This document shows, in pieces, positions 2,905 to 30,473 of a stretch of DNA of 64,000 nt. Below the pieces are notes generated by a model, which saw only the letters and a program-made list of their open reading frames with translations, was not told where the DNA came from and did not search any database. The position numbers and the translations under genes are program-made. This DNA is from an uncultured bacterium (lineage in GTDB: Bacteria; Cyanobacteriota; Cyanobacteriia; Phormidesmidales; Phormidesmidaceae): positions 8,776 through 72,775 of the forward strand of contig CAWUKV010000003.1 of NCBI GenBank assembly GCA_963923025.1. Reading direction: 5' to 3'. Every line of letters begins with the position of its first letter. The first letter of the stretch is position 1.

Positions 2905-5201
2905 TAGAAACGCTCTCCCAAACCGAAGTGAATGCGGCTTTCACCCCGATCGTTGAAGCCATAGTCCAGCCGGAGCGCCCCCAGCGGCGTATTGACCCGG
3001 ACGCCGACGCCATAGCCAAAACCGCTGCCCGGTTTGCCACGGACGCCTGCGGGGTCACCCAATACCGAACTGCCACTGCCTAGGTCCGTTGCCGCATCGA
3101 CAAACACCGTGCCCCCAAGGAAGCTGGTAAACAATGGGAAACGATATTCGGCTGTGGCCTGGACGAAGCTACGACCGCTGCCCAGATCGCCCTCTTCATA
3201 GCCGCGTACAGAGTTGGTTCCCCCCAAAGAGAACGCTTCGTAGGGCGGCAACTCACCGATGACGGTTCCGGCTTGGATGTTGAAGGCGAGGGTCTCGGGA
3301 CCCTCGCCAAAGCCGGTAAAGTCGACCGGGATGTACTGGCTGTAGCTACTGCGCAACCGATTGAAGAAAAGGTTGCCGTTGCCCAGGGGAATGGCCTGTT
3401 CAGTACCCAACCGCAGCAGACTGCCGCTAGTTGGCACAAAGGGGTCATTGCGGTAGTCCCACACCAGCCCCAGAGGCACGGTCAGGAGGTCATCGCGCCC
3501 GGTACCGCTAACGGTTAGAGGATTGCCCTGCTCGTCGGTTGTGACGATAGCGCCACCCTCCTCCCGGGTGGAGATACGCTGGTAATCCAGACCCAGCGTG
3601 GCCGATAGGTTATCGCTGAGGGGACGACCAAAGGTGACGCCACCGCCCAGTCGGTTAATGCGGGGAACATCACCATTGGCCAAGGTGACGGGGGTTTCGC
3701 CGTTGTCGAAGATCAGCGATCGCGATCGTCGATTAAACACATTGACCGTGTAGGACGTCCGGTTCGGGTCGCCCGCAATCCAAGGGTCAGTGAAGCTGAG
3801 GTCAAACAGGAAATCACGAGAGCTGAGCTGAACCTCGGCCCGCAGCTTCTGGTTATTGCCGCCAAAGTTGTCCTGCTGGTAGCTGATGCTGCCAAACACG
3901 TCACCTGTCAGGTTGAAGCCTGCCGCTGCACCAATGGAGCCAGTGCTGCGTTCAGCCACGTTGACCACGACTTTCACCTGGCGGGGGTCTTCGTCACCGG
4001 GGTCCAGGGACAGGCGAATGTCGTCAAAGATGCCCAGGCCAAACACCCGCTGTAGATCCTGCTGAATGTCGGACTGCCGGAAAACATCCCCCGGCTGCGT
4101 TTCAAACTCGCGGGTAATGATAAACGGGCGGGTGCGCCCATTGATGGGATTACCGTTTTCGTCGGTGGTATCGCCATCGGCGGTAATGTAGCGGACTTCG
4201 ATATCCTCAATCACGCCTTCTGCCACAATCAGCGTCACCACACCGTCGTCAGAAACCTGAGGAGCTGCGGTCACCTGAGCCAGCACGTAGCCGTTGTCCT
4301 GGTACCAGTTATTCAGATCCAGAATGCCGTCCTGAAAGTCTCGCAGGTTAAGGATGCTGCCGTACTGTGGGCTGAAGATATCATCGACCACTTCCTCCGG
4401 CAGCACTTGATTGTCTCGAATGTCTACACGGGTCAGCACCGGGTTGGGGTCCACCAGGAACGTCACCCGCACACCCAGGACCGTATCTTCGGGCACGGCG
4501 CGAACGTCGGAGAAAAAGCCTGTGGCAAAGACGCTGTTGATGTCAGCCTGGAGCTGCGATCTCGTCGTGGTGCGACCGGGCTGCAGATCGATGGCATCGT
4601 AAACAATATCCACCAGGTCCGGCGTTAGCAATGCGCCGCCCTCACCCGCGACGGCCACCTCTGCCACCTGCACCTGCACTTCTTCTTGCGGTTCAGCGGC
4701 TTCCGGCGGCGACTCAGCCGGTGGCTCAGCTGGCGACTCAGCCGGAGGTGCGACAGGGTCGTTTACAGGCTCTGGCGGTGCGGATGCTGGAGGATTGCCA
4801 ATGCCGTCGCGAAGACGCTCTAGACGCTCAGCTGGGGTTTCTGAAGCGCTATCTTCGGTTTGCGCCAACAGCGAGGGGGCGCTAGGGGTAGGTCTTTGAG
4901 TCGCTTCGTCTACCGTCGCTTCCGTCCTGTCGGTCTCAACAGTCGGCTCAACGCTGGCGGACGTTTCGCGGGCTGGCTCAGTCGCTGTCTGCTGCGCCGT
5001 TTCAATGCTTGCCTCGCTAGCGGTAAACACCGGGGTCGGTCCAGCGCCAGCAGGGGGAACTGCATCCGGTTCAGCCAGCAAAGCTGCTGGGCTATCTAAC
5101 CCGTCTGGGGCAGCTGGATTGGCCTGGGCAGGTAACGCCACCAGCGCTGAAATTGTGCAGCAAGCCAACAGAGCTGGCGAAAAGCGCATACTCATTTCCA
5201 T
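2904..5201 (-). CDS. bamA: outer membrane protein assembly factor, Omp85/BamA family (cyanobacterial Omp85 with proline-rich N-terminal region)
   Basis: 765 aa ORF with a signal peptide, a Pro/Ala-rich linker, POTRA-like repeats and a C-terminal beta-barrel ending in GLGERF. It abuts lpxC as in cyanobacterial genomes. Confidence 0.85.
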
Positions 5202-5433
5202 GTATTAAGGGACTCCTCACACCGCTTCCAGCCGGGCTGGGCGGATCGATTAAGGCCGGAAACCCCGTTGACTGGCCCTTTGCGACACCTGCTAAGTCAG
5301 GCCGAACCGTGCTTCGCTGTGCGCCAAAACGCCGTCAACGGCTTAACCCGCCGTTCAACTGCTATGGTTACCAATTTTGATTGCTAAAAATTAACAATCG
5401 CAACAGATTCTACCGCACCGCTCTGCCAGACAC

Positions 5434-6177
5434 CTAGACAGAATGTGCCAAAATTCGATCTAGCACCTGCTGATAGGCGGCTTCGACGTTCCCCAGGTCT
5501 TGGCGGAAGCGATCTTTGTCCATGACGCGCTTGTTCGGATCCGTTTCGGCCTGATTCCATAGACGGCAGGTATCTGGACTAATTTCATCAGCCAGCAGCA
5601 GCGTGCCGCTGGCGTCGGTGCCAAACTCTAGTTTGAAGTCCACCAGAGAGATGCCGCAGTCGTTGAAAAACTGGATCATGATCTGGTTAATTTGGCTGGC
5701 CATCTGCTGCAGTTGGGACACGGTCTCCGGGCTCGCCAGGCCCATAGCCTGAATGCGATCTAGCGTCAGTAGCGGATCACCCAGATCATCATTTTTGTAA
5801 TAGAACTCCACCAGGGGCGGGCTGAGCTCGGTCCCCAAGGCCATCCCAGTTTGGCGGCAAAGGCTACCTGCCGCCAGGTTTCGCACCACCACCTCCAGCG
5901 GCACAATGGTGACGGTCTTAACCCGCATTTCGCGCTCAGTGGGCGTATCAATCCAGTGGGTCGGTATTCCCTGTGCGTTCATCAGCTTGAACAGGTGGGT
6001 CGAAAATGCACAGTTAATCTGGCCCTTTTTAGCAATTGTCCCCCTCTTCTGGGCATTGAACGCGGTGGCATCATCCTTGAAATAGGTCAGCAGCACCTGC
6101 GGATCGTCGGTCGCGTAGAGAATCTTGGCCTTGCCTTCGTAAAGCTGATCGCCGTGGGGGGTTTTGGGGAATTGAGT
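5434..6177 (-). CDS. purC: phosphoribosylaminoimidazole-succinocarboxamide synthase (SAICAR synthetase) PurC
   Basis: LYEGKAKILY N-terminal motif and a PurC-like fold. The ORF extends to 6252, but MTQFPK at 6177 is the likely start. Confidence 0.88.
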   Translation of the reverse strand, partial: TQFPKTPHGDQLYEGKAKILYATDDPQVLLTYFKDDATAFNAQKRGTIAKKGQINCAFSTHLFKLMNAQGIPTHWIDTPTEREMRVKTVTIVPLEVVVRNLAAGSLCRQTGMALGTELSPPLVEFYYKNDDLGDPLLTLDRIQAMGLASPETVSQLQQMASQINQIMIQFFNDCGISLVDFKLEFGTDASGTLLLADEISPDTCRLWNQAETDPNKRVMDKDRFRQDLGNVEAAYQQVLDRILAHSV

Positions 6178-6568
6178 CATGGTTCGTGGGTTGGGTTCGT
6201 CCATTCGTTGACGACCCATCCAATATCTCCCATTCACGAACCCAACACCCACAAATTTAAGGGGCTGTAATCACTCTAGTGTTCTGTTTCCCACGCTGGA
6301 AATTGCTTATCCAGCAATTGTGCTGTGGTGAACGGACAATCAGCAGGACACGGTTCTTCTGATAAACCTATCTCTGCCGTCGCCCGTTCTACAGCATCAG
6401 TATGTGTTGGTGATCCATGCGTAGGTAGCCTGTCCCCTAGAGCGTCGTCGAAGAACTCGTTGAGGGCTGTAGAGCGGTCATCAAGCCAAGTATCAGAGAA
6501 GAACCAAATCGCAGAGTGGAGAAACGGCTACCTGATCCTAGCCAATGTACTGGGAGAGGGGCTGCCTG

Positions 6569-9172
6569 CTACTTTGTGGTCATTGTATGCACCCCATCCC
6601 AATCACTGGGTGGCGGGGCTTGCAGATAGGCCCGTGCCCGCTCTAGGTGAATCTGAACGGCTTTGTCGAAGGGGCGAGCCTGCTCAGCCTGTTCGAACAG
6701 TTGAATCGCCTGCTGAAAGTTAGCTGACGTGTAGGCTTGGCGGCCAGTTTGGTACAGATCGAGAAAAGAGAGAACGCCGTCATCCAAAGATTTATCGCGG
6801 CTGTCGATCAGCTCATAGATTTTGACCGGCTTTCGTTTGCCTTTAACGCGGGTGAGATCGAGCTCTCTGACCCAAATATTCTCTTTGCACAGCTCGTAGG
6901 TATGCTCACTCAACACAATGTCGCAGCCGTACTGCTTGGTGATGCCCTCTAGTCGGGAGCTAAGATTGACGCCATCGCCGATGACCGTATACTCCATCTT
7001 GCGCTGGGAGCCAATGTTGCCGGAAACCACCTCACCGGAGCTGATGCCGATACCAATGCGGATTTCGGGTTGGTCTTTAGCATTGCGATCGCGATTGAAC
7101 GCCACCAGCCGATACCGCATATCCAGCGCCGCCTGCACCGACGCCCAGGCATGATTTTGCAGCGGCAGCGGTGCACCAAATACCGCCATCAGCGCATCGC
7201 CAATAAACTTATCCAGCGTGCCCTCATGGTTGAACACCGCCTCCACCATCGTCTCGAAATACTCGTTCAGCATTGAGACCACGTCCGCCGCTTCTAAGTT
7301 CTCTGTCAGGGTGGTGTAGCCGCGAATATCAGAAAAGAGAACGGTGACATCTTTACGCTCACCCACCATCAGCGCATCGTCGCCCAGGGCCATCACTCGT
7401 TCCGCCACTCCCGGCGTCATGTAGCGATACAGCGTGGTCTTCATCCGCTTTTCCTGGCTGATGTCTTCCAGCACCACCAGGCCACCACGCACGCCACCTT
7501 CCGGGTTAGTTAGCGGGTTTACCGTCAGGTTGAGGCTACGCTCTAGCAACTGTATTCGCTTAGAGTCGCTAATCTCAGGCGACTGGGTATCGCCCCACAG
7601 CCGGTAGTGGCCGTCCCCGTCAGGAATCGCCAGCACATGGGATTCATTCTCAAGCTGGTAGGCGACCCCCAGCGTCAGCGCCTGCTCTGGAACGTAGTGT
7701 TTTGCGCCATACTGTAGGCTGTCTTCCAGGCGAAACTGTAGCCGCTCCACTGGAATCACCTCCCAGATCGGGCGATTCACCAAATGGCTTTCCCAAATCT
7801 GAGCGATCTGTTTGCCCTCATCGCCATCCAGCGGGCAACCCAACAGCGCCAGCGCTGCCTCATTGATGGTGACAATGCGTCCGGCCAGGTCGGTGGAGAT
7901 TACAGCATCCGACAAACTTTGCAAAATGTCTTTTTGGTACTGCTTTTCGAGCAGTACCGCCTCAAACAGTTTGGCATTCTCTAGGGCTACCCCTGCCTGA
8001 ATATTAAATGCCCGCATGAAGGACTCATCAGAGCTAGTAAAGGCCCCTTGTGCCTTGTTAATCAGCTGGGTTACGCCAATCAGCTGGCTGTTTGAGTCAA
8101 AGACGGGCATGCAAAGAATATTGCGAGTGTGGTACCCGGTCTTTTGGTCTGCCGTAGGGTCAAAGCGATCGTCTTCGTAAGCCTTGGGGATGTTCAGAGT
8201 CTCTCCCGTGGAGGCAACATGGCCAACAATCCCCTTATCAGCAGGCTGTCGCAGGTCTAACAGCTGTTGACCATCGGCACTTTTGACCTTAGACCATAGC
8301 TCTTGTTGCCCCTCGTCCAGTAGCCATAGCGTACTGCGGTCCGCCTGCATGAGATCTCGCGCCTCAGCCATAACAGACTGTAGCGTCACCTCAAGGTCGA
8401 GGCTTTGATCGAGAGATGAGATGGCCTTAAGCAGTGCCCCCACTCCCTTTTGATTGCGAGCAGCAATATAAAAAGAGTTACAGCTCTCCAGTAAAATGCC
8501 GATGGAGCTGGCAAATTCTTCAAACGTTCTCTCATCGTCAGAAGAGAATGGCTCAACACCATGCTTGTTCAATAGCTGCACCACAGCCACCACCGTTCGC
8601 CCAGTGCTGTAGATGGGCATACACAAAATGTTGCGAGTGCGGTAGCCCGTCTTCTTATCGGTTGAGGCATCAAACCGAGGGTCGGCGTAGGCATCGGGAA
8701 TATTGAGTCGCTGTGCTGTCGAAGCGACATACCCCGCGATGCCTGCTAGCATCGGCACTCTAATTTCTAACGCGTCTTCGCCATCCCCCTGGGCAATCTT
8801 TGACCACAGTTCCTGCTTCTCTTCGTCCACCATAAAAATAGTGGTTCGCTCGGCCTGTAAAATCTCTCCAATCTTGAGGGTAAAGGCTGCCAGCAATTCT
8901 TCCAGCAGCGTTTCTAATGCCTGGTTATTGATTAGATCAATGGCTTTGAGAAAATGTCCGAACTCGTTCGTTATGCGGTCGAGCAGTTGTACAAAATCTG
9001 CGGTGGGTAGACCTCTGACCCGCTCCATCAGCCGCCCTGCCTGGTTAGACCGGGACAGAGTCGCCAAAACGCTCGTGGAACTCCCTGAAGATCGCTGCTT
9101 CAATACCCCGCTATCAGATGCTCCACTGTTAGATAATTGCCCCATAGCCTCTATGACTGGTGTGATGCCCAT
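6569..9172 (-). CDS. cyaB: multidomain class III adenylate cyclase (GAF-GAF-PAS-cyclase-TPR, CyaB1-like)
   Basis: 867 aa protein with two GAF domains (NKAQGAFTSSDE and NKHGVEPFSSDDE motifs), a PAS-like segment and a class III cyclase core (VTVLFSDIRGYT, FIGDALMAVFGAP, GDGVNLSSRLE). The C-terminal helical TPR-like tail resembles Anabaena CyaB1/CyaB2 architecture. Confidence 0.8.
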   Translation of the reverse strand: MGITPVIEAMGQLSNSGASDSGVLKQRSSGSSTSVLATLSRSNQAGRLMERVRGLPTADFVQLLDRITNEFGHFLKAIDLINNQALETLLEELLAAFTLKIGEILQAERTTIFMVDEEKQELWSKIAQGDGEDALEIRVPMLAGIAGYVASTAQRLNIPDAYADPRFDASTDKKTGYRTRNILCMPIYSTGRTVVAVVQLLNKHGVEPFSSDDERTFEEFASSIGILLESCNSFYIAARNQKGVGALLKAISSLDQSLDLEVTLQSVMAEARDLMQADRSTLWLLDEGQQELWSKVKSADGQQLLDLRQPADKGIVGHVASTGETLNIPKAYEDDRFDPTADQKTGYHTRNILCMPVFDSNSQLIGVTQLINKAQGAFTSSDESFMRAFNIQAGVALENAKLFEAVLLEKQYQKDILQSLSDAVISTDLAGRIVTINEAALALLGCPLDGDEGKQIAQIWESHLVNRPIWEVIPVERLQFRLEDSLQYGAKHYVPEQALTLGVAYQLENESHVLAIPDGDGHYRLWGDTQSPEISDSKRIQLLERSLNLTVNPLTNPEGGVRGGLVVLEDISQEKRMKTTLYRYMTPGVAERVMALGDDALMVGERKDVTVLFSDIRGYTTLTENLEAADVVSMLNEYFETMVEAVFNHEGTLDKFIGDALMAVFGAPLPLQNHAWASVQAALDMRYRLVAFNRDRNAKDQPEIRIGIGISSGEVVSGNIGSQRKMEYTVIGDGVNLSSRLEGITKQYGCDIVLSEHTYELCKENIWVRELDLTRVKGKRKPVKIYELIDSRDKSLDDGVLSFLDLYQTGRQAYTSANFQQAIQLFEQAEQARPFDKAVQIHLERARAYLQAPPPSDWDGVHTMTTK

Positions 9173-9309
9173 TGCACTGGAAGATGCCTACAGAACCATA
9201 GTTCCCAAGGCAGCGCAGCAGCGATAATGCCACTGTTATACCGTGATTTGGGTGAGGTGTGAGGCGTTAGTCTATTGCGCTAGTTAGGTCGGTCAGAAGA
9301 TTGCCCCCA

Positions 9310-10857
9310 TTACTGCTCCTTCTTCAACAGCGGGAAAGCAATCACATCGCGGATGCTGGCGCTGTCGGTCAGCAGCATAACCAGTCGGTCGATGCCCATG
9401 CCCATGCCTGCTGCGGGGGGCATGCCGTACTCTAGCGCAGTCAAAAAGTCTTCATCAACGCCCTGGGCTTCGAGGTCGCCTGCCGCCTTTTTCTCGGCTT
9501 GGGCCTCCAGGCGCTGGCGCTGATCTAAGGGATCAGTCAGCTCCGAAAAGCCGTTAGCGGTTTCGCGTCCGACAATAAACAGCTCAAACCGTTCAACCAA
9601 GCCCGGCTTACTGCGGTGGGGCTTAGCCAGGGGCGAGATTTCGACCGGATAGTCGGTAATAAAGGTGGGCTGAATCAGCGTTTCTTCGACTTTCTGCTCA
9701 AAAGCTTCGTTAAGTAGGTTGCCCAGGCTGGGGCAATCGTCAATGTTGGTGATACCGGCCTGTTTGGCAGCGGTTTTGCCCTCGTCCAAATTGGCAAACT
9801 GGGTAAAGTCTAACCCCGTTTTATCTTTCACCGCGTCGTGCATGGTCGTGCGCTGCCAAGGGCGAGTCAGGTCGATCTTCTCACCCTGGTAGGTGATATC
9901 GGTGGTCCCTAACGCGTCCTTTGCAGCCGTGACAATTAGGGCCTCGGTAATGTCCATCATCTGGTCGTAGTCGATGTAGGTCTGGTAGATCTCAATCGAC
10001 GTGAATTCGGGATTATGACGGGTGGAGACACCCTCATTGCGAAAGATACGCCCCATTTCAAACACCTTCTCGAAGCCACCCACCAGCAGCCGCTTTAGGT
10101 GCAGCTCTGTGGCAATACGCAGGTACAGCTCCATATCCAGCGTATTGTGATAAGTGATGAAGGGTCTTGCCTCTGCCCCACCAGCCTCCGGCTGTAGCAC
10201 AGGGGTTTCAATTTCAATAAATCCCTGCTGGTCTAGCTGACGGCGGATAGAGGCGGTAATCAGTGCACGCTTGCGGAAGGTGTCGCGCACTTCGGGATTG
10301 ACGATCAGGTCCACGTAGCGCTGGCGGTAGCGCTTGGCTACATCAGTCAATCCGTGCCACTTGTCAGGCAGGGGCAGCAGCGACTTGGTGAGAATGGCAT
10401 ATTCCGAGACTTTGACCGACAGTTCACCTTTGTCCGTCCGCTTAAGCGTGCCCTTAACGCCCATAATGTCGCCTGCGTCGGTGAGCTGCTTCAGGTGGGC
10501 GAAGGCCTGCTCGTCCGTATCGGCCATGGCGGCCTGGATGGTTTTCTTATCCAAGTACAGCTGAATGGTGCCGGTTTCGTCTTGCAGGGTAAAGAAGGCC
10601 AGCTTGCCAAAGACTCGGCGGGTCAGGATGCGGCCCGCGATCGCAACGGCGTCTTCGATTTCTTCGCCAGCGGGCAGATCGGCATACTCGCTTTGCAGAT
10701 CGGCAGTGTGGTGCGTAATAGGCCAGTCGTAGGCGTAAGGGTTCAGGCCCAGCCGCTTAAGGTCATCCACCTTCTGTACGCGGGCGGCGCGAAGGTCGCG
10801 GTCGTCGTTAGGTTGGGAGCCAGCGTTTGAGGCGTTGGGTGTCGAGTCAGCAGCCAT
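9310..10857 (-). CDS. lysS: lysine--tRNA ligase (class II)
   Basis: 515 aa protein with an OB-fold anticodon-binding domain and class II motifs ([24 protein letters not shown]). Confidence 0.9.
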
Positions 10858-11087
10858 TAGATAGGATTGGGTCTGAAATTGCCAGCCCCTATCTTATCGG
10901 TCTACCGGGTAAAAGTTCCATTGACGAAGAGGCGTTCTGGCCTGAGACTCTGCAAGTGGCTGTCGTCAACTTCCCACAGCGCATTTGGGTCGGAGATCCA
11001 GATGGCACAAAGTACGGGGCCACCGTAAGTACGGAGCTACAGGGCTTACCATCACGCCGCTCAAACAGGTTTTGCTCATCACGTGGC

Positions 11088-15719: not shown

Positions 15720-15859
15720 AAATACAGAAGAAGATCTCGGAAGCTTGGCGAATTTTTAATTTTTATCGGGAGGAGTATGAAATTCGATTATGCGTCAGTC
15801 TAGTACGGATGACGCTGAAGGAGGTGTGTAATAAGCAACGCGCGTGGCAGTCCTAGTTC

Positions 15860-15904
15860 GAGAGGGAAAGGGAAAAGGGGGGAAAGGATAAAGGGGAAAA
15901 GGGG
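15860..15904 (+). promoter_or_regulatory. 45 nt polypurine (GA-only, one T) tract with G-runs in the divergent pncB/ubiA intergenic region
   Basis: gagagggaaagggaaaaggggggaaaggataaaggggaaaagggg has H-DNA/triplex or G-quadruplex potential. Confidence 0.5.
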
Positions 15905-21069: not shown

Positions 21070-24000
21070 ATGGAAAAAGCGCTGATGCGGGTGAAGGTGA
21101 ACACTTGGCGATGGGTGGTTGCGATCGCGGCGATGCTGCTCAGCGTTGATATTGTCACCTACTTCATGGCCGAGGGGCTGTGGTTTGAGTCCGTGGACTA
21201 CCTGCAAGCCTTTTGGCTGCGGCTGCAAACCCAGTTGGGGCTAGGAGCACTGGGGCTGGCAGGCAGCTTTGGGTTCGCCCTGGTAAATCTGCTGCGGGCG
21301 CGGCGGCTCAGCGTTGACGACAACTGTATCTTGCCCAATGCCAACAATCGACGGACGGGCATTGGTTTGACGGGGCTGTTGCCACTGGCGGTGGGGCTGG
21401 CGGTGCTGATCATGGTGCTGCTGTTGTATCACGGTCAGCTGGCCGTTACCCGCTGGCATACTCAGGATGTTGGGGACGCACTACCGGCGCTGCCGCTGTG
21501 GCTCAACTTTCGGACGGGCTGGCAGGTAACGCAACAGGTGCTGGCGCTGCCGTGGTTAGGAGCAGTGCTGCTAGTGGGAGCGGTGGGTTTCCTGATATAC
21601 CCCATGCTGCTAGGGTATCTCAGCACCGTGGTCATCAGCCTCTGTTTTGGCCTGGTGCTGTCGTCCCAGTGGTCGAGAATTCTGCCCGCGCTCAACCCCA
21701 CCGCGTTTGGCATTGACGACCCACTATTCAACAACGACATTAGCTTTTACATTTTCCGACTGCCCATTCTCGAACTAGTGGAGTTTTGGATTTCCGGACT
21801 GTTGTTGTTTACCCTGGCGCTGGTAACGCTGGTATACCTGCTGGCGGGCAACAGCCTCAGTCAAGGGCGGTTTTTGGGCCTTGCTCCCCCGCAGCGGCGG
21901 CATCTGTTTGGCCTCTCCGGCGGGCTGTTGTTGACAACAGCTCTAGACAACTGGATTGCCCGCTACGAGCTGCTGTATTCGCCTCGGGGGGTAACCTTTG
22001 GAGCCAGCTACACCGATGTTGCCGTATCTCTGCCAGTGAATACGGGCTTGAGCATTCTGGCGCTGGTGCTGGCTGTCATTCTGCTATGGCGGACGCTATT
22101 TTGGGATACCACCTTTCGCGGGCTGGTGGAATGGCTGATGATGATTGGCCGCAACCAGTACGCCTACGTTCCCAAGGTACCGGTACGGCCTCGCAGTTCT
22201 CGACTGCTGATTAGCATTGTGCTGGGCTATTTGGCAGTGAGCGTGCTAGGCGCAACGGTAGTGCCGGGGATTGTGCAGCGGCTGGTAGTACAGCCGAACG
22301 AGCTCGAACGAGAAACGCCCTTCATTGAGAAAACAATTGCGTTTACCCGCCAAGCTTTTAACCTGACGGATGTTCAGGATGAGGTATTCATACCAGAAGA
22401 TTCTCTGACAGCGGCAGACTTGGAGCGCAACAACCTGACAGTCCGCAACATCCGCGTTTGGGACACCCGTCCCCTGCTAGAGAGTAACCGGCAGCTCCAG
22501 CAGATTCGCTCGTACTACGAGTTTGTAGATGCTGATGTCGACCGCTATACCCTGCGCAACGACGACGGCAGTACCGAGCGCCGTCAGGTAATTATTTCAG
22601 CGCGGGAGCTGAATACTGACCGATTAGATGAGATTGCCCAAACTTGGGTGAACCGACATTTGAGCTATACCCACGGCTACGGGTTCACCATGAGCCCAGT
22701 CAATACGGCGGGGGTCGGCGGCCTGCCGACCTACTTCATTAAAGACATTGCCCATGTCCCTAGCAACCCAGCGGTGGCCCGTAGCATTCCGGTAGGGGAG
22801 CCGCGCATCTACTTTGGCGAGCTGACAAACAACTACGTCATGACGTCGACTCGAGTAGAAGAGTTGGACTACCCCAGCGGCAGCGACAATGTGTACACCG
22901 TCTATGACGGGCAGGGCGGCATCAGCATTGGCGACCCCTTTCGGCGGTTGCTGTATGCCAAGCATCTAGGCGACTGGCAAATGCTGTTTACCGACAACTT
23001 TACGCCCGAGACACAGCTGTTGTTTCGGCGCAACATTCAAGACCGAGTGAAGCGGATTGCGCCGTTTCTGCAGTTTGACCAGGATCCCTACCTGGTAATT
23101 GCCAATGTACCCTCTGCCCCCGCCAACGAGCAAAACAAGCTGTATTGGATTGTGGATGCCTATACGACGAGCGATCGCTACCCCTATGCCGACCCAGAGC
23201 AAAACGAGTTCAACTACATCCGCAACTCGGTCAAGGCGGTGGTGAATGCGTACCAGGGGACGGTCGACTTTTACGTAGCCGATGCCGAAGACCCGGTCAT
23301 TCAAACTTGGGCCAGTCTATTTCCCAACATGTTTCAGCCGCTAGCAGACATGCCCACTGAGCTGGCGGCTCACATCCGCTACCCCCAAGACTATTCATTG
23401 GTGCAGTCTAATCAGCTGCTAACGTATCACATGACGGATCCGCGCGTGTTCTATAACCGTGAGGACCAGTGGCGGGCACCCAGCGAAATTTACGCCAACG
23501 AGCAGCAGGTAGTGGAACCCTACTATCTGATTATGAGGCTGCCGGATGCGGACGCTGAGGAGTTCATTCTCTTGCGTCCTTTCACGCCTCGTCAGCGTAA
23601 CAACCTGATTGCTTGGCTGGCGGCTCGTTCAGACGGCGAAAACTATGGGCGCATTTTGCTGTACCGCTTCCCCAAGCAGGAGCTCGTGTTTGGTCCAGAA
23701 CAGATTGAGGCTCGAATTAACCAGGATCCCGAGATTTCGCAGCGGATCTCCCTGTGGGACACCCAGGGCTCACGGGCGAATCAGGGCAATCTACTGGTAA
23801 TTCCCATTGAAGATTCTCTTTTGTACGTGGAGCCGTTATACCTAGAAGCAGAACAAAATCAGCTGCCAACCCTGGCACGAGTTATCGTGGCTTACCAAAA
23901 TAGAATTGCGATGGCAGAAACGCTGGATCAGTCGCTCAGTGCTATCTTTAACCAGCGCAAGTCGAGCAGCCCAGCGATTATTCGCGATCTTGAAAACAGC

Positions 24001-24084
24001 GAGGCTGATACGCCCGACCAAATCGACCAGCTGCTGCTACCGGATGAGCCAGCTCCGTCAAACACCATTGAGCCAAGCGAATAA
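21070..24084 (+). CDS. UPF0182 family membrane protein (paralog 1)
   Basis: 1004 aa ORF with an N-terminal multi-transmembrane region and a large extracytoplasmic domain carrying the conserved YIDAYTTSDRYPY and LLVIPIEDSLLYVEPLYL motifs. Confidence 0.85.
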   Translation: MEKALMRVKVNTWRWVVAIAAMLLSVDIVTYFMAEGLWFESVDYLQAFWLRLQTQLGLGALGLAGSFGFALVNLLRARRLSVDDNCILPNANNRRTGIGLTGLLPLAVGLAVLIMVLLLYHGQLAVTRWHTQDVGDALPALPLWLNFRTGWQVTQQVLALPWLGAVLLVGAVGFLIYPMLLGYLSTVVISLCFGLVLSSQWSRILPALNPTAFGIDDPLFNNDISFYIFRLPILELVEFWISGLLLFTLALVTLVYLLAGNSLSQGRFLGLAPPQRRHLFGLSGGLLLTTALDNWIARYELLYSPRGVTFGASYTDVAVSLPVNTGLSILALVLAVILLWRTLFWDTTFRGLVEWLMMIGRNQYAYVPKVPVRPRSSRLLISIVLGYLAVSVLGATVVPGIVQRLVVQPNELERETPFIEKTIAFTRQAFNLTDVQDEVFIPEDSLTAADLERNNLTVRNIRVWDTRPLLESNRQLQQIRSYYEFVDADVDRYTLRNDDGSTERRQVIISARELNTDRLDEIAQTWVNRHLSYTHGYGFTMSPVNTAGVGGLPTYFIKDIAHVPSNPAVARSIPVGEPRIYFGELTNNYVMTSTRVEELDYPSGSDNVYTVYDGQGGISIGDPFRRLLYAKHLGDWQMLFTDNFTPETQLLFRRNIQDRVKRIAPFLQFDQDPYLVIANVPSAPANEQNKLYWIVDAYTTSDRYPYADPEQNEFNYIRNSVKAVVNAYQGTVDFYVADAEDPVIQTWASLFPNMFQPLADMPTELAAHIRYPQDYSLVQSNQLLTYHMTDPRVFYNREDQWRAPSEIYANEQQVVEPYYLIMRLPDADAEEFILLRPFTPRQRNNLIAWLAARSDGENYGRILLYRFPKQELVFGPEQIEARINQDPEISQRISLWDTQGSRANQGNLLVIPIEDSLLYVEPLYLEAEQNQLPTLARVIVAYQNRIAMAETLDQSLSAIFNQRKSSSPAIIRDLENSEADTPDQIDQLLLPDEPAPSNTIEPSE

Positions 24085-24440
24085 AGGGGCTAGGGATGAG
24101 CCGTACGAATAGTTGTTTTACTGATATTCTGAAAAGCCATGAGCTAGAACAACTCCATATCAATATCAGTCCATCAGGTCTGAGCTCATAGGCTCCAAGC
24201 GGTGGCCTTATTGGTAGGCGCCGCGTTAGTGCAGCAGGGCGATCGCTACAGGGAAGACCCCAGAAGAAAACCCAACGACGAGACGACTCAGTCAAAAATT
24301 GCCGAATACAATGGCAGTATGGCGTACGCCCAAAACAACAGTCAGCTATGGACAGGCTACCAAACCAGCTCATCCCAAGCCGCACGCTCTGCTTGCCAAA
24401 CCACGATTGAGCTCGTCAAGGAGCCCATAAGGAGGAGGAG

Positions 24441-24599
24441 ATGCGTACCGCAAGACACGTAGGGTCACGTGCTGGCCCAAGACCGGTATCCAAAAACACA
24501 AATTTTCCTACACATTTATCTAAAGATGAAGCTATTGAACAAGCCCATTCGCGAGTTCCTAACCCCAAAAACCGCATCGCGTTTAATATTCCATGCTGA
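24441..24599 (+). CDS. small basic ORF (52 aa) translationally coupled to the downstream binding-protein gene
   Basis: AAGGAGGAGGAG lies immediately upstream of the ATG. Its stop overlaps the next start (ccATGcTGA). The translation is MRTARHVGSRAGPRPVSKNTNFPTHLSKDEAIEQAHSRVPNPKNRIAFNIPC. Confidence 0.4.
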   Translation: MRTARHVGSRAGPRPVSKNTNFPTHLSKDEAIEQAHSRVPNPKNRIAFNIPC

Positions 24600-25738
24600 A
24601 AGCGCTTTTATCCCCTCTCACCGCCCCCGACCTACGCCAACTGTCCACCGCGGCCCTGACCCTGGCCGTACTGCTGGGCACCGCCGCCTGCCAAACCCCA
24701 ACCGAGACAGCAGTAGATGCTGAGGCCCCAGCTGAAGCAGTAGCAGATGAGGCTGCCGAAGCACCGGCTGAGCTGACGTCTGTGAACTTCACGCTGTCCT
24801 GGCTATTACAGGGCGTAGACGGGCCGCTAACCCTGGCGATAGACCGGGGCTACTTTGCCGAGGCGGGGTTGGACGTTAGCTTTGAGCGCGGCTTCGGCTC
24901 ATCGGACACCGCTTCGAAGATTGCTGCAGGCCAGTACGACATGGGCTTTGGCGATGTTTATTCCATGATCGAATTCAATCAGCAAAACCCGGATGACAAG
25001 CTGATTGCTGTGGCAGTGACCACCAACCGCGCCCCCTTCGCTTTGCTGGCGTTTGAAGACAGCGGCATCGAATCATTGGACGACATGGCCGGGAAGAAAC
25101 TGGGTGCCCCCGTGGGCGACGCCCCTCGGCGGCTGTGGCCCGTCCTGGCAGAGGAAGCTGGCGTAGACGCCGATGCAGTGGAGTGGGTCAGTATGGAACC
25201 CAAGCTGCGTCAGAGCTTTTTGCTCCAGGGCAACGTCGATGCCATTAGCGGCTTCAGCTATTCCATGATTCCAGCCCTAGTCGAGGCCGGTAAAACCCTC
25301 GACGACATGAACATTTTCTACTATACCGAGAACGGGCTGGACTTCTACGGCAACGTCATTATGGTGAAAGAGTCTTTCCTAGCCGAGAATCCTGAAGTGG
25401 TAGAAGGCTTTTTGGCAGCTTACATCAAAGGCATGCAGGACGCCGTCGCCGACCCCGAAGCTGGCCTAGCCGCAGTTATGGCTGCGGGTGACGAACTGAT
25501 GGACGAGAACGCCGAGCGGCTGAGATTGCAGATTGCGCTCGATGGCCTACTGGTGAACGAAGAAGTGGAAGAGATTGGCTTTGGCGCTGCCGACCCTGAA
25601 CGACTAGAAGCCACCATTGCCCAAACGGTCGAGGGCTTTGACTTACCTGAAACACCGGCAGTGGAAGAGGTCTTTGATGATAGCTATCTACCTGCGTTAG
25701 AAGACCGGCTACCCGGCGAGGTGGGGACTTTAGAGTAA
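24593..25738 (+). CDS. ABC-type transporter periplasmic substrate-binding lipoprotein, NMT1/THI5 (SsuA/TauA/ThiY-like) family
   Basis: 381 aa ORF with signal peptide and lipobox LLGTAAC, and a periplasmic binding fold. No permease or ATPase gene lies adjacent. Confidence 0.75.
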   Translation: MLKALLSPLTAPDLRQLSTAALTLAVLLGTAACQTPTETAVDAEAPAEAVADEAAEAPAELTSVNFTLSWLLQGVDGPLTLAIDRGYFAEAGLDVSFERGFGSSDTASKIAAGQYDMGFGDVYSMIEFNQQNPDDKLIAVAVTTNRAPFALLAFEDSGIESLDDMAGKKLGAPVGDAPRRLWPVLAEEAGVDADAVEWVSMEPKLRQSFLLQGNVDAISGFSYSMIPALVEAGKTLDDMNIFYYTENGLDFYGNVIMVKESFLAENPEVVEGFLAAYIKGMQDAVADPEAGLAAVMAAGDELMDENAERLRLQIALDGLLVNEEVEEIGFGAADPERLEATIAQTVEGFDLPETPAVEEVFDDSYLPALEDRLPGEVGTLE

Positions 25739-25754
25739 GAGGTGCGTAGATCGA

Positions 25755-26753
25755 ATGCTGGTGACCCAACACCCTGTCTTTCGACAGTTTTGGTATCCGG
25801 TAATGCCGCTAGAACGCTTGCGGTCAGGGCCACAGGCGTTTTCTTTGCTGGGTCAGTCACTGGCATTGTGGCTAAACGCAGCAGAGCAGCCGGTAGCCGT
25901 AGAAGACCGCTGCTGTCATCGCTCCGCAAAGCTCTCTAAAGGGGTAGTTAAGGATGGGCATCTCCAGTGCCCGTACCACGGCTGGTGCTTTGCGGGAACA
26001 GGGGCCTGTACTCTGGTCCCGCAATTGGCTGAGCCAGTTATCCCGAAAACCTACCGAGTCAAATCCTTTCGCTGCGACTCGCGTTATGGCTATGCCTGGG
26101 TCTGTCTAGACACGCCCAGGGCAGACATTCCGGCTATTGCAGAAGCAGAGGACCCAGCCTTTCGCTACATTCCTGAGTTTTACGAAATCTGGCAGTGCGC
26201 AGGACTGCGGCTGATGGAAAATTCTTTTGACAATGCCCATCCGCACTTTGTTCACGACAAAACCTTTGGCCTACAGCAGGACCCCATCCCCCCTGCCCCC
26301 GATACGTTTGTTGAGTCGCCATCTGGCTTCACGATGACCTATCGGCTGCCGGTCAAAAATTCTACAGAGCAGCAGCGCAACCTTGGCATGGAGGAGACAC
26401 GCACCGTGCGCATCAGTGAGGGCAAGTGGTACGCCCCCTTTATCAGAACGCTGAAGATCACCTATCCCAACGGGCTCATCCATCTCATTTTCACAGCGGC
26501 TACCCCCATTGATGATGGCTCAATTCAGGTTGTACAGTTTTGCCTGCGCAACGATGGAGAAGCGGATGCCAAAGCCGCAGACATTGTGGCGTTTGACCGG
26601 GCAGTAACCCTAGAGGACAAACTGATTTTAGAAGGAACCGACTCTGACGTGCCGCTGGACATAAAGGCTGAACAGCACATGGTCAGCGACAAACCCGGCA
26701 TTGTTATGCGTCATCGGCTAGCTGCACTCATTCGTGACACAGAGGGTCGCTGA
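25755..26753 (+). CDS. Rieske [2Fe-2S] non-heme iron oxygenase alpha subunit (PAO/VanA-like)
   Basis: Rieske motif CCHRSAKLS...CPYHGW and a mononuclear iron motif ENSFDNAHPHFVHD. Confidence 0.85.
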   Translation: MLVTQHPVFRQFWYPVMPLERLRSGPQAFSLLGQSLALWLNAAEQPVAVEDRCCHRSAKLSKGVVKDGHLQCPYHGWCFAGTGACTLVPQLAEPVIPKTYRVKSFRCDSRYGYAWVCLDTPRADIPAIAEAEDPAFRYIPEFYEIWQCAGLRLMENSFDNAHPHFVHDKTFGLQQDPIPPAPDTFVESPSGFTMTYRLPVKNSTEQQRNLGMEETRTVRISEGKWYAPFIRTLKITYPNGLIHLIFTAATPIDDGSIQVVQFCLRNDGEADAKAADIVAFDRAVTLEDKLILEGTDSDVPLDIKAEQHMVSDKPGIVMRHRLAALIRDTEGR

Positions 26754-26779
26754 TGGTATTCGGCGCGATCGCGATACTA

Positions 26780-27343
26780 TCAGCCCACGACGGACACCTC
26801 AGACCGCTGCCGTTCCGAGTAGGCTTTTAGCCCTTCTAGGTCTTTGATCTGAAGCTCACGGACCCATTTCACAATGCCAAAAAGCTTTGCCGGCACATGG
26901 AACGGGCGGTCGTAGGTGTTGTCGAAATGCAACGTCACTTCTGTCTGCTGATTAGGCAGCGATCGCAGGTCAAAGTCAAGGTAAGGCGTATGCTTCAGCG
27001 GACCACTATCGACCAGGGTCATCGAGACCTTTTGGTTCGGCTCTAGCCCAATAATTTCCTGATGGCCAAAGCGCTTGCCTTCGTCAAAAAAGACCGTGCG
27101 GGCCCCGACAGCACCATCGGCATTCTCAACTGAGCAAGTTGAGCCCGTTGCCTCGGGCCATGCCGACCATGCCATCAATCGATCTTGCCAGCGAATATTG
27201 TTGTACACCTGCTCAACTGGGGCGTTCACAACGATCTTCTCTGAATATTCGACCTTGTTGGGTAGCAAGAAAACCAACACCAAACACGCGCCCAAAAGTA
27301 GGATTGCTCCATTGAGAACAATTGCCATAACTTCTCCATTCAA
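26780..27343 (-). CDS. SRPBCC (polyketide cyclase/START-like) family protein with N-terminal transmembrane anchor
   Basis: 187 aa ORF with a hydrophobic N-terminus and a Bet v1-like fold. Confidence 0.55.
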   Translation of the reverse strand: MNGEVMAIVLNGAILLLGACLVLVFLLPNKVEYSEKIVVNAPVEQVYNNIRWQDRLMAWSAWPEATGSTCSVENADGAVGARTVFFDEGKRFGHQEIIGLEPNQKVSMTLVDSGPLKHTPYLDFDLRSLPNQQTEVTLHFDNTYDRPFHVPAKLFGIVKWVRELQIKDLEGLKAYSERQRSEVSVVG

Positions 27344-27425
27344 GGCTGATGACGACCCGCGTCTATGCCAGTCGCCTGTACAATATAATTAGAACACAAA
27401 GTATCTTGATCATCAAGTTAAAATT

Positions 27426-27875
27426 TTGAGTCATCCTGAAAGTCTAGAATCCATCATTCTTGCAGGGCGAAGAATTCATGCGGCCATTGACGCTGTAGAC
27501 TACGCCATTTCCGAACATCTCGGCATTCATCGCAACGATTTGCGGGCGCTTAACTTGCTAGAGGACGGTCCACTCTCCCCAAAAATGATTGCCGAGCGAG
27601 TTGGGCTAACTAGCGGCTCAGTCACCGCGCTGATTGACCGATTAGAAAAGGCAGGCTTTGTAGAACGCCGACCCTCAAAAACCGATCGCCGTTCGATAGA
27701 AGTTGGTATTGCACCGCATCGTTATGCAGAGATTGGTGCGCTGTATCGCCAGTGTGCCGCAGGGTTGATGAACAAGTTTGGCGACAAAACAGAAGATACG
27801 ATAAAAGCATCGGTAGCGGTGCTCTCAGAGTTTGCTGAGGCGATGGAGCAAGCAGCTGCATCACTAGAGGACTAG
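27426..27875 (+). CDS. MarR family transcriptional regulator
   Basis: Winged-helix segment LSPKMIAERVGLTSGSVTALIDRLEKAGFVERRPSKTDRR. Confidence 0.85.
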   Translation: MSHPESLESIILAGRRIHAAIDAVDYAISEHLGIHRNDLRALNLLEDGPLSPKMIAERVGLTSGSVTALIDRLEKAGFVERRPSKTDRRSIEVGIAPHRYAEIGALYRQCAAGLMNKFGDKTEDTIKASVAVLSEFAEAMEQAAASLED

Positions 27876-27939
27876 CAGCCTGTTAAACAACTGCCCCCAG
27901 CGCCAGCGCCCTGGGGGCAGTTCGGTCAGAGCGCTACAG

Positions 27940-29919
27940 CTATGCCTGAATGACGAAGTTGTCAGCGTCTAAGGTCGGTGCGCCTTCCAGCGTTGCATAC
28001 TGTCCGCCGCTGCCAAAACCTGCTTCCGCACCGTTGGCGTTGTAGTACAGCGTACCGGTATCGGCACCGTAAACAATCAGGGCATCGCTCAGTTCTGCCT
28101 CTTCGGCGCTGTTCACCACCGCAAACTCATCAGCAGATAGCGGCCCACCGACAGCACTGGTGAGCTGAGTAAAGACGGTCAGATCTAGCACAATGCTGTC
28201 AATGTCCTCAAAGTTCTGGATTTGATTGGTGCCGATATCTGCCGCATCAAAGGCAGCACCAGTGTCAAAGCCAAAGAAATCGGCCCCATCGCCGCCAATG
28301 AGAATATCGTTGCCACCACCACCAATCAGTAGGTCGGCCCCGCCGCCGCCAATGAGAATATCGTCGCCGGCACCGCCGATGAGAATGTCGTTACCCGCGC
28401 CACCGTCGGCCACGATTGGGGTTAATGTCGCGCTGGCATTGAGAAAATCATTACCCTCCCCACCAGAAAAAACTACAGACTGAACGTCGCTACCGGTCAG
28501 ATCCTCAACCGTCAGCGAATCATCACCACCCTGGCCGTTAATCTCAAACTGTTCGATCCCTTCGTTAGTGAGGGTAAACAGCCCCAGATTTAGGCGGTCA
28601 AAAATAGCCTGACCGTTCACCTGGCCTAAGTTGAACTCATCCCCAGGGCCGTCAGCGCCGTTGACCTGGGTAACGTCGAACCCGGCACCCCCATCAATGA
28701 AGTCGCTGCCGTCGCCGTTGTTCCAAATAAAGCGGTCGTCACCATCACCCAGGTTGGCAGTATCGCTGCCTCGCTGGCCCACAACAATGTCGTTGCCCGC
28801 CCCAGCAAAGAATGTGTCATCGGCGGAGCTGCCCAGCAGCAGGTCGTCACCATCACCCCCAAAAGCCTCAATCGTTGTCGTGCTTTCTCTGGCATCTAAG
28901 AGGTCATTTCCGTCACCGCCTGAGAAGACCACCTTTTTCACCGCACTGCCGGTCAGATCACCCACCGTCAGTGAATCGTCACCGCCGAGGCCATTGATTT
29001 CAAACCGCTCGACGTTCTCATTCGTCAGGGTAAACGGCCCCAGATTCAGGCGGTTGAAAATGGCCTGACCATTCTCCTGACTCAGGTCAAACTGGTCGCC
29101 AGGGCCGTCAGCCCCGTTGACCTGCGTGGTGTCGTAGCCCTTGCCACCGTCAATAAAGTCGCTGCCGTCACCGTTGTTCCAAACGAAACGATCGCGCCCT
29201 CCACCGAGGCGAGCAGTATCGCTGCCCCGCTGGCCCACAACAATATCGTCACCCGACCCGGCCACAAAAGTATCGTCCGCAGAGCCACCCAGCAGCAGAT
29301 CGTCACCGCTACCGCCCTTGGCTTTAATTTTAGTCGAACTCTCACGGGCATCTAACGTATCGTTGCCGTCGCCACCGGAGAAAACAACCTTCTTTACAGC
29401 GCTGTTGGACAAATCGCCAACCGTCAAAGAATCATCGCCACCCAGGCCATTGATTTCAAACCGTTCGATATTCTGGTTGGTGAGGGTAAACGGCCCCAGA
29501 TTCAGGCGGTTAAAGATGGCCTGTCCATGCGCTTCTCTCAGGTCGAACTGGTCGCCAGGGCCATCAGCACCGTTAACCTGCGTGGTGTCGTAGCCCTTGC
29601 CACCGTCAATAAAGTCGCTACCGTCACCGTTGTTCCAAACAAACCGATCGCGGCCTGCCCCCAGGAAGGCAACGTCGTTTCCTGTCTGACCAACAACGAC
29701 ATCGTTTCCACTACCGGCAAACATAACGTCGGTGCCAGCACCGCCTAAAATCGTATCGTCACCGTCTAAACCGAAGAAAATATCGTCCTGATCACCGCCT
29801 ATTAGCCCGTCATCGCCATTGCTGCCGATGAAAATGTCGCCCAGATCCTCAATCTCAGGCGCGTCATCGAAGATCGAACCGACAATCTGATTAACCAAAA
29901 ACGCTAGAAAAGAATTCAT
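27940..29919 (-). CDS. RTX-type calcium-binding protein with hemolysin-type GGxGxD repeats
   Basis: About 660 aa. The start is at MNSFLAF (29919) with AAGGAG upstream. It carries dozens of GGDGNDxL / GGxGxDxx nonapeptides and three roughly 150 aa internal repeats. Confidence 0.85.
   Translation of the reverse strand: MNSFLAFLVNQIVGSIFDDAPEIEDLGDIFIGSNGDDGLIGGDQDDIFFGLDGDDTILGGAGTDVMFAGSGNDVVVGQTGNDVAFLGAGRDRFVWNNGDGSDFIDGGKGYDTTQVNGADGPGDQFDLREAHGQAIFNRLNLGPFTLTNQNIERFEINGLGGDDSLTVGDLSNSAVKKVVFSGGDGNDTLDARESSTKIKAKGGSGDDLLLGGSADDTFVAGSGDDIVVGQRGSDTARLGGGRDRFVWNNGDGSDFIDGGKGYDTTQVNGADGPGDQFDLSQENGQAIFNRLNLGPFTLTNENVERFEINGLGGDDSLTVGDLTGSAVKKVVFSGGDGNDLLDARESTTTIEAFGGDGDDLLLGSSADDTFFAGAGNDIVVGQRGSDTANLGDGDDRFIWNNGDGSDFIDGGAGFDVTQVNGADGPGDEFNLGQVNGQAIFDRLNLGLFTLTNEGIEQFEINGQGGDDSLTVEDLTGSDVQSVVFSGGEGNDFLNASATLTPIVADGGAGNDILIGGAGDDILIGGGGADLLIGGGGNDILIGGDGADFFGFDTGAAFDAADIGTNQIQNFEDIDSIVLDLTVFTQLTSAVGGPLSADEFAVVNSAEEAELSDALIVYGADTGTLYYNANGAEAGFGSGGQYATLEGAPTLDADNFVIQA
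28290..29660. repeat. roughly 450 bp intragenic tandem repeat, about 3 copies, inside the RTX gene
   Basis: Near-identical DNA blocks occur at a 450 bp period. For example gtcgccagggccgtcagccccgttgacctgcgtggtgtcgtagcccttgccaccgtcaataaagtcgct is seen at about 29095 and again at about 29545. Confidence 0.7.
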
Positions 29920-30473
29920 TTCGGGGGTCTCCTTCAGTGTTAGATGAGAATGATGAGCTTTCTGAAAAAGAATTTGCACGCGAAGCCGTCCTCAACAGAT
30001 AAGCGAGGAATATGGCATTATCTTTAACAGAAGAGAGAGATTTTCTCTTTACTTTTTGTTATGGCAGCAGAACGACACAGGCATTAGATAGTTCGCTATT
30101 GCTACCAGATGACTCTCATAAAGGCTTATAACAAAGCCAACAGAGAAGAATTAAAAGCAAAGCCAGGGAATAACAGAATCGGGCATTCAGACATAGATAC
30201 GAGTCGTTGCCAACATTGGATGTGGCTTTTTCGAGATTTGACAGGTTAGTTGTGGCTGCTTGAGCTAGAGGACGTCAACCGAACCACTGTTTATAACTAG
30301 CGCCATTTACGTTAGGACACCGAGTACAGTGATCCTGCTTGTCATAAAGCGAAATGGCGTCACAGCCTTTTCCTGACGGATCTGACCGCTGCTGTATTTA
30401 CCTGTCTGAATACCAATACGACCGATGCGACCTATTGGATGAGTTTTTTTGATTTTTCCTTGAAGCCCTTGAC

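Follow-up and report, generated by a model that had tools for sequence, protein, structure and literature searches.

A short open reading frame with a strong Shine-Dalgarno sequence probably overlies an NtcA-type promoter upstream of a cyanobacterial binding-protein and Rieske oxygenase gene pair

We analysed a 64-kb stretch of DNA from an uncultured cyanobacterium of the family Phormidesmidaceae (contig CAWUKV010000003.1, positions 8,776 to 72,775; called the window throughout), in which a 52-codon open reading frame (ORF) with a strong Shine-Dalgarno (SD) sequence runs into the gene for an NMT1/THI5-family substrate-binding lipoprotein, which is itself followed by the gene for a Rieske non-haem-iron oxygenase. 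The original prediction for this locus was that the small ORF is translationally coupled to the binding-protein gene or encodes a leader peptide, and our analysis does not support it. The interpretation we favour, to which we assign a probability of about 60%, is that the ORF and its SD sequence form a fortuitous, strain-specific frame lying over the NtcA-type promoter of a two-gene operon that scavenges purine-like nitrogen. The ORF most likely takes no part in the expression of the binding protein. The outcome is a deflationary one, in which a textbook-looking SD sequence, an upstream ORF and a stop/start overlap are probably a chance frame over a promoter.

The distribution of the small ORF provides the first line of evidence. 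We collected 80 orthologous loci from GTDB genomes (given here by L numbers); a tblastn search with the ORF peptide, allowing matches up to E = 10, hit none of these loci. Both the binding-protein gene and the oxygenase gene are nevertheless retained without the ORF in L001 (87% and 82% identity to the window's proteins, respectively) and L002 (84% and 81%), and likewise in L007, L010, L011 and L013, and the regions upstream of the 16 orthologues examined contain either unrelated short ORFs or no ORF. The SD-like run of the window, AAGGAGGAGGAG, was not found at any orthologous locus, nor in the sister strains L084 and L087. When the peptide was compared with 1.84 billion representative proteins using HMMER, its single real relative was P0247, a strain variant from the same locus; two further hits were repetitive and of low identity, and were disregarded. 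Because the ORF is missing from relatives in which both the binding protein and the oxygenase are kept, its conservation pattern speaks against the proposed coupling.

A further comparison comes from near-identical strains of the same species, which are represented by metagenome contigs and fall into two haplotypes: A, comprising the window, L085 and L086, and B, comprising L084 and L087. Haplotype A has the layout UPF0182 gene, 508-nt spacer, binding-protein gene. Three single-nucleotide polymorphisms (SNPs) lie within these 508 nt, each non-synonymous in whichever ORF it affects, and the one in the small ORF changes R to L at 24574. In MAFFT and blastn alignments, L084 matches the window at 99.3% identity between 24478 and 27166, and shows no similarity to it upstream of about 24473. 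Haplotype B thus has neither the SD sequence nor the ATG nor the first 10 codons of the window's ORF. Moreover, L084 and L087 both carry a 10-nt tandem duplication, ATCGCGTTTA (L084:567-586, corresponding to about 24575-24584 in the window), directly before the binding-protein ATG, which alters the end of the small ORF and lengthens the 5' leader. The strain breakpoint lies only 8-13 nt upstream of the NtcA-type box described below, and the box is kept in both haplotypes; because the breakpoint is so close to the box, the DNA further upstream appears to be dispensable for the operon. We also considered an overlapping 86-codon frame at 24202-24462 as a gene or pseudogene and rejected it: neither homologues nor a Pfam match were found, and two strain SNPs within it are non-synonymous.

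The origin of the two haplotypes may lie in repeated DNA. The upstream region of haplotype B (L084:1-470) contains short palindromic dispersed repeats, CCCCTAGCCCC...GGGGCTAGGGG, which are present too in L008, L018 and L070, and a half-copy of the repeat, AGGGGCTAGGGA, stands in the window at 24084-24095, directly after the UPF0182 stop codon. These observations suggest that the divergence at 24473-24478 arose through a repeat-mediated rearrangement.

What both haplotypes retain upstream of the binding-protein gene resembles a nitrogen-regulated promoter. Cyanobacterial promoters activated by NtcA have the geometry GTAN8TAC, about 22 nt, TAN3T. The window carries the composite GTATCCAAAAACAC, 22 nt, AAAGAT at 24486-24527, in which the box reads GTA-N8-CAC. 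At 45 of 71 loci, the 300 nt preceding the binding-protein gene include a perfect GTAN8TAC, against 6.0 +/- 2.4 in shuffled sequences. The composite GTR-N8-YAC-N22-NANNNT is present upstream of 41 of 70 orthologues; shuffling gives 1.27 +/- 1.14 (maximum 5), and among 410 control regions upstream of other ORFs from the same loci the proportion is 5.9%. A stricter form of the composite with the hexamer [AC]A[AT][GT]AT was found at 13 of the 70 loci, compared with 0.05 in shuffles. Furthermore, AAAGAT, CAAGAT or AATGAT stands 22 nt past the box in 15 of 19 sequences (17 loci, the window and L084), and the window's promoter aligns with the copies in L001-L019, which have '...tttat.. AAAGAT' in common with it. 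The predicted site resembles canonical NtcA promoters in its box, its 22-nt spacing and a -10 element whose second and sixth positions are A and T; it differs from them in the CAC half of the box and in the hexamer AAAGAT. We infer that the binding-protein gene probably has its own nitrogen-controlled promoter within the "ORF", that NtcA may bind the box, and that transcription would start at about 24533-24536, some 93 nt downstream of the ORF's ATG. Promoter and leader function would explain the block shared by haplotypes A and B. A link between NtcA and an operon for a receptor and a Rieske enzyme is plausible on these grounds, and has not previously been described in cyanobacteria.

The features that made the small ORF attractive are all real. 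The run AAGGAGGAGGAG is the best-looking SD sequence and a unique 12-mer in the window; its first GGAGG core ends 5 nt upstream of the ATG at 24441. The TGA of the ORF (24597-24599) does overlap the binding-protein ATG within ATGCTGA, at 24593-24599, and no purine-rich or SD-like motif is found in the 20 nt preceding 24593. Their significance is another matter. AAGGAGG occurs three times in the window counting both strands, and neither of the other two copies (15818, plus strand; 49731, minus strand) stands before a gene. One or more instances of an AAGGAGG followed within 3-9 nt by an ATG and at least 50 open codons turn up in 11.5% of block-shuffled windows, and of the same layout with AGGAGG in 41%, so that such an arrangement is not rare by chance. 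The stop codon in the +1 frame after the binding-protein ATG is a by-product of Met-Leu-Lys codons (ATG CTR AAA) and recurs in L001. As two of the three frames meet a stop within 7 nt of this ATG, the overlap carries little information. The codon usage of the ORF looks non-coding: its codon score is -0.12, versus 0.35 +/- 0.13 for real genes (52-codon windows from 29 large ORFs), which places it below 99.8% of those windows, and its G+C content at third codon positions (GC3) is 0.33 versus 0.65 for the large ORFs. The 52-residue peptide has no Pfam match. As a separate observation, the AAGGAGG copy at 15818, behind which no gene begins, leads into a purine-rich tract, gggaaagggaaaaggggggaaaggataaaggggaaaa (region 15818-15900).

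Nor is an upstream ORF required to explain how the binding protein is translated. Its reading frame opens at 24587, and 24593 is the sole position upstream of the lipobox with an ATG, GTG or TTG codon in that frame; it is therefore the one possible start, and the only one that keeps the signal peptide. None of the 16 orthologues examined has an SD sequence within 40 nt of its start. Of the 29 large ORFs in the window, each taken from its longest possible start, only about 6 show an SD-like tetramer within 20 nt of that start, and about 23 do not. Since SD-less starts are normal both for this gene and for this genome, coupling is unneeded to account for its translation. More generally, strong SD motifs predict little in cyanobacteria, in which most genes lack them.

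The binding protein itself is readily classified. It matches the Pfam family PF09084 (NMT1) with E = 9e-38 (130.7 bits, cutoff 20.5) and belongs to a well-conserved family of cyanobacterial lipoproteins of 375-385 residues, whose signal peptide ends in ...LLGTAAC with a nearly invariant Cys33 (at least 90% of 36 aligned sequences), usually followed by Gln. All of its close homologues are cyanobacterial (322 homologues collected), and the window has a GC content of 55% and 36 HIP1 sites (GCGATCGC), all of which agrees with its cyanobacterial origin. The nearest relative of solved structure is the pyrimidine-binding protein ThiY (3IX1, E = 6e-14), and the best NCBIfam matches are SsuA_fam (TIGR01728, 67.7 against a cutoff of 163.5) and the taurine binding protein (TIGR01729, 38 against 304.25), both under cutoff.

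The oxygenase gene follows as described, at a distance of 16 nt rather than 17. Pfam identifies a Rieske domain (76.5 bits) and a VanA_C domain (70.3 bits) in its product, which has no signal peptide. Read from the translation, both the Rieske ligand motif C53-x-H55-x16-C72-x2-H75 (25911-25979) and the mononuclear-iron motif E155-x3-D159-x2-H162-x4-H167 (26217-26255) are intact. The best match of solved structure, over the full length, is the methylxanthine N-demethylase NdmA (E = 1.1e-37); NdmB matches at 4.9e-29 and the dicamba demethylase DdmC at 1.5e-17, and the cyanobacterial proteins SxtT and SxtDIOX match the N-terminal part only. The family is a tight one, with pairwise identities of 49-83%, and includes a member from a Microcoleus urate cluster and three paralogues from L088. 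At this last locus (Elainellaceae, 6506-10993), the three paralogous Rieske/VanA_C genes, whose products are 61-68% identical to that of the window, are arranged around one NMT1 gene, so that a single receptor gene may be accompanied by up to three Rieske paralogues; they adjoin nitrile hydratase genes, and two of them (P0199 and P0210, 61-62% identity) are named HpxD by NCBI.

The association of the two genes extends well beyond the window. They are adjacent in at least six genomes (L001, L002, L007, L010, L011 and L013) and lie in common clusters in many further ones, which supports the idea that the binding protein and the oxygenase work as a functional pair. The binding protein was described as an orphan because no transporter genes adjoin it. 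Indeed, no ATP-binding cassette (ABC) ATPase or permease was found anywhere in the window, but this holds only at this locus: an ABC ATPase stands beside the binding-protein gene in 63 of the 80 orthologous loci and a permease in 58. In L001 the gene order is binding protein, oxygenase, ATPase (the last at L001:8212-9042), and in L011 it is binding protein, oxygenase, DIOX_N/2OG oxygenase, ATPase, permease (the last at L011:10425-11222). The window's permease and ATPase are thus presumably encoded elsewhere in the genome. A DIOX_N/2OG-Fe(II) oxygenase gene follows the Rieske gene in L002 as well as in L011 (L011:8180-9118); in L002 (region 4447-8265) the next genes encode a double ABC ATPase and a nucleoside-binding protein of the Bmp/PnrA type. 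These families are also those of the proteobacterial xanthine-riboswitch regulon described below.

The genomic neighbourhoods of the relatives provide a likely indication of the substrate. In Microcoleus, the orthologues are accompanied by genes for the urate hydroxylase HpxO (609 bits, cutoff 500), hydroxyisourate (HIU) hydrolase, OHCU decarboxylase, PuuE allantoinase and allantoate amidohydrolase, and the Rieske orthologues, 53-57% identical to the window's, sit between the HpxO, HIU hydrolase and OHCU decarboxylase genes, with no HpxE-type reductase among the listed neighbours. The closest binding-protein orthologues, which are marine (L003-L022; for example L083:6746-9727), lie divergent from a gene for an AtzD/TrzD-family ring-opening amidohydrolase (320 bits, under the cyanuric-acid equivalog cutoff of 360), accompanied by an OPRT-like protein, an HbpS-like protein and GntR. 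Homologues on proteobacterial plasmids sit with amidohydrolases and formamidase, and those on Deinococcus and Azospirillum plasmids have transporter and amidohydrolase contexts and no riboswitch. Taken with the similarity of the oxygenase to NdmA, these contexts point to an oxidised-purine-like N-heterocycle, serving as a source of nitrogen, as the most probable substrate. Xanthine, hypoxanthine, urate or a methylxanthine would fit, and a related trione (barbiturate or cyanurate, for example) is a further possibility.

A course of events consistent with these data can be proposed. Under nitrogen limitation, NtcA would activate the promoter, and transcription would begin at about 24534, so that the leader would measure about 58 nt and contain no SD sequence. 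The resulting mRNA, if the two genes are co-transcribed, would direct synthesis of an exported lipoprotein and a cytoplasmic oxygenase, the gene for the latter having its own GAGGTG motif 10 nt upstream. The lipoprotein would act as the periplasmic receptor of a NitT/TauT-type ABC importer and hand a purine-like N-heterocycle to the permease and ATPase encoded elsewhere; the Rieske enzyme would then hydroxylate or N-demethylate the imported compound, drawing electrons through ferredoxin or an unlinked reductase, and its product may enter urate or ureide catabolism. The original prediction of a capture-and-oxidise module is supported in that the two proteins appear to form a functional pair, but a self-contained module is not supported: as the lipoprotein is exported and the oxygenase is not, the two reside in different compartments, and capture and oxidation could be connected only through an importer. 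We advance more tentatively a wider proposal, namely that many filamentous cyanobacteria may possess an NtcA-controlled scavenging system, of which the window would hold a minimal two-gene version. In such a system an NMT1 receptor would import oxidised or methylated purines or ureide heterocycles, and their oxidation by a dedicated Rieske family, with no need of a molybdenum cofactor, would supply the pathways of urate and of the ring-opening amidohydrolases.

Several known systems resemble this one in part. In Proteobacteria, a riboswitch sensing xanthine and urate (the NMT1 motif) controls a related set of genes, among them those for NMT1/TauA binding proteins, HpxD-like Rieske dioxygenases and PcbC/DIOX_N dioxygenases (Yu & Breaker 2020, PMC7373994). 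The same three families thus come together in both cases, with NMT1 and Rieske genes in the window and the DIOX_N/2OG gene following the Rieske gene in the two relatives mentioned above, and both have a purine-oxidation context. The system described here differs in its cyanobacterial host and in its apparent NtcA-type transcriptional control in place of a riboswitch: an Rfam scan of 11 related loci found no riboswitch, leader or small RNA at gathering score, its only match being an unrelated CRISPR repeat in L003. The proteins of the proteobacterial regulon are likewise biochemically uncharacterised. In Klebsiella, as recounted in the riboswitch study, the hpx genes encode HpxDE, a Rieske hypoxanthine/xanthine hydroxylase, together with HpxO, HIU hydrolase and OHCU decarboxylase (de la Riva et al. 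2008, via PMC7373994). The similarity here lies in the VanA/NdmA-like Rieske alpha subunit, the Microcoleus context and the NCBI name of the two L088 paralogues; the proposed likeness to HpxD draws on these names and on gene context, and, unlike the Klebsiella locus, the window has no adjacent HpxE-type reductase gene and no urate genes, and its protein is not itself named HpxD. The structures of NdmA and NdmB (PDB 6ICK and 6ICL) are the best full-length solved relatives of the oxygenase and share its Rieske and mononuclear-iron motifs, but the similarity is remote and there is neither an NdmD-type reductase nor a caffeine-degradation context here. The literature covered by our search contained no cyanobacterial study of the binding-protein/Rieske system.

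Should our interpretation be correct, the genes now described as "ABC transporter substrate-binding protein" and "aromatic ring-hydroxylating dioxygenase" could be re-annotated as partners in the uptake and oxidation of a purine-like nitrogen source, probably under NtcA control. They would represent a parallel to the proteobacterial xanthine-riboswitch regulon and a candidate route by which cyanobacteria might use the nitrogen of purines, and the comparison supplies a short, testable list of ligands for both proteins.

A number of observations weigh against this interpretation. The box has C in place of the consensus T (CAC rather than TAC), a mismatch shared with L001 and L002, the -10 hexamer AAAGAT is weak, and a generic sigma-70 scan detected no consensus promoter between the UPF0182 gene and the binding-protein gene. 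The generic promoter and terminator scan likewise predicted no terminator in this interval, and since transcription may therefore continue past the UPF0182 gene, a read-through mRNA could carry the SD sequence and the small ORF. Haplotype B has a 64-codon ORF of its own (L084:394-588), with 39 codons in common with the window's ORF, a GAGGA motif before its start and an end 6 nt before the binding-protein ATG. Among the differences between A and B in the shared block, 3 of 5 are synonymous in the ORF frame and 2 are non-synonymous, counts too small for significance. This ORF and the slight synonymous excess are the only evidence favouring a coding role. As for the substrate, its assignment is built on gene context in relatives, and the nearest binding-protein orthologues are linked to the AtzD-family amidohydrolase and not to urate genes. 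No HpxD model matched the oxygenase in the NCBIfam scan. The window contains no purine-catabolic, transporter or reductase gene, including none adjacent to the oxygenase; a search of it for ABC permease or ATPase, 2OG dioxygenase, Bmp, HpxO, HIU hydrolase, OHCU decarboxylase, AtzD-family, PRT and GntR genes found none.

The alternative that fares best concerns the substrate, which might be not a purine but a sulfonate, taken up by a TauA/SsuA-like receptor and attacked by a TsaM/Msm-like Rieske monooxygenase, or a methoxylated aromatic acid, handled by a VanA-like O-demethylase. The msm and tsa operons are precedents for sulfonate transporters paired with Rieske monooxygenases. The identity of the two best NCBIfam matches of the binding protein, the VanA_C domain of the oxygenase and the lack of purine genes in the window all fit this view. 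We nonetheless consider it unlikely. The NCBIfam scores fall far under the SsuA_fam and taurine cutoffs, and no sulfur-assimilation or aromatic-acid genes were seen beside the pair in the 80 loci. The contexts that were seen are instead urate catabolism, a ring-opening amidohydrolase with an OPRT-like gene, formamidase and a Bmp nucleoside transporter. In addition, the promoter is apparently of the nitrogen-control (NtcA) type, and the closest solved oxygenase, at 1e-37, acts on purines, in contrast to the much more distant DdmC. The sulfonate or taurine assignment was rejected on the NCBIfam cutoffs and the genomic context.

A second alternative is the coupling originally predicted, according to which the ORF is translated from its SD sequence and ribosomes re-initiate at the overlapping ATG, either to supply the SD-less gene with ribosomes or to regulate it. 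The locus does look like known coupled upstream ORFs and leader peptides in its strong SD sequence, short ORF of suitable ATG spacing and stop overlapping the next start, and the absence of an SD sequence from the binding-protein gene, the GAGGA-preceded ORF of haplotype B that likewise ends within 6 nt of the ATG, the synonymous differences in the shared block and the undivided stretch between UPF0182 and the ORF are all to its credit. It is very unlikely all the same, because the ORF is unconserved at every orthologous locus and has a non-coding look, and because a strain that is 99.3% identical downstream lacks the ORF's SD sequence, ATG and N-terminus and has a C-terminus changed by a 10-nt indel. 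SD-less starts are the norm for the gene family and the genome, the overlap is uninformative, and the conserved promoter motif lies within the ORF and downstream of its start codon, so that the start is probably upstream of the transcription start. Finally, no terminator or antiterminator hairpins and no regulatory codon runs were found, and a permissive Rfam scan of 23800-28200 returned no match at E <= 1.

Least probable of all is that the ORF is a true gene for a small protein, of very recent origin, confined to the species and unrelated to binding-protein expression, with a product of 52 residues in haplotype A and 64 residues with a hydrophobic N-terminus in B: the frame is open in both haplotypes, each time with an SD-like motif and an ATG, gene callers report the 64-residue form on L084 and L087, and synonymous differences are slightly in excess, but the A form is uncalled on L085 and L086, there are no homologues beyond the species, both termini differ between the two forms, the codon score and GC3 are those given above, the additional SNP within haplotype A (24574) is non-synonymous, and promoter and leader function would account for the shared block.

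Table 1. Positions of the features discussed, in window coordinates.
Feature	Position	Strand	Remarks
UPF0182 gene	21070-24084		Upstream of small ORF
Shine-Dalgarno-like purine run AAGGAGGAGGAG	24429-24440	+	Abuts ATG of 52-codon ORF; read from sequence
52-codon ORF	24441-24599	+	Most likely no functional gene
Upstream limit of homology between haplotypes A and B	24473-24478	.	MAFFT and blastn
NtcA-type box GTATCCAAAAACAC (predicted)	24486-24499	+	Fits GT-N10-AC; 1 mismatch to GTAN8TAC
-10-like hexamer AAAGAT	24522-24527	+	Exactly 22 nt past box
NMT1/THI5-family (NitT/TauT-type) substrate-binding lipoprotein, 381 aa	24593-25738	+	Pfam PF09084
Signal peptide, ending in lipobox LLGTAA-C33	24593-24691	+	Alignment of 36 sequences
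SD-like GAGGTG	25739-25744	+	10 nt before oxygenase ATG; read from sequence
Rieske non-haem-iron oxygenase alpha subunit (Rieske + VanA_C), 332 aa	25755-26753	+	Pfam
SRPBCC gene	26780-27343	-	Downstream of oxygenase
MarR gene	27426-27875		Downstream of oxygenase

The MarR regulator and the SRPBCC protein noted just downstream of the oxygenase are indeed encoded there. Because neither gene is syntenic with the binding-protein/oxygenase pair in any of the 80 orthologous loci, we regard them as unrelated neighbours and rejected them as parts of the module. Beyond them lies a 679-residue ORF on the minus strand (27940-29979) with three internal repeats of about 160 residues and many GGxGxD/DDxL-type motifs, which looks like an RTX-type calcium-binding repeat protein.

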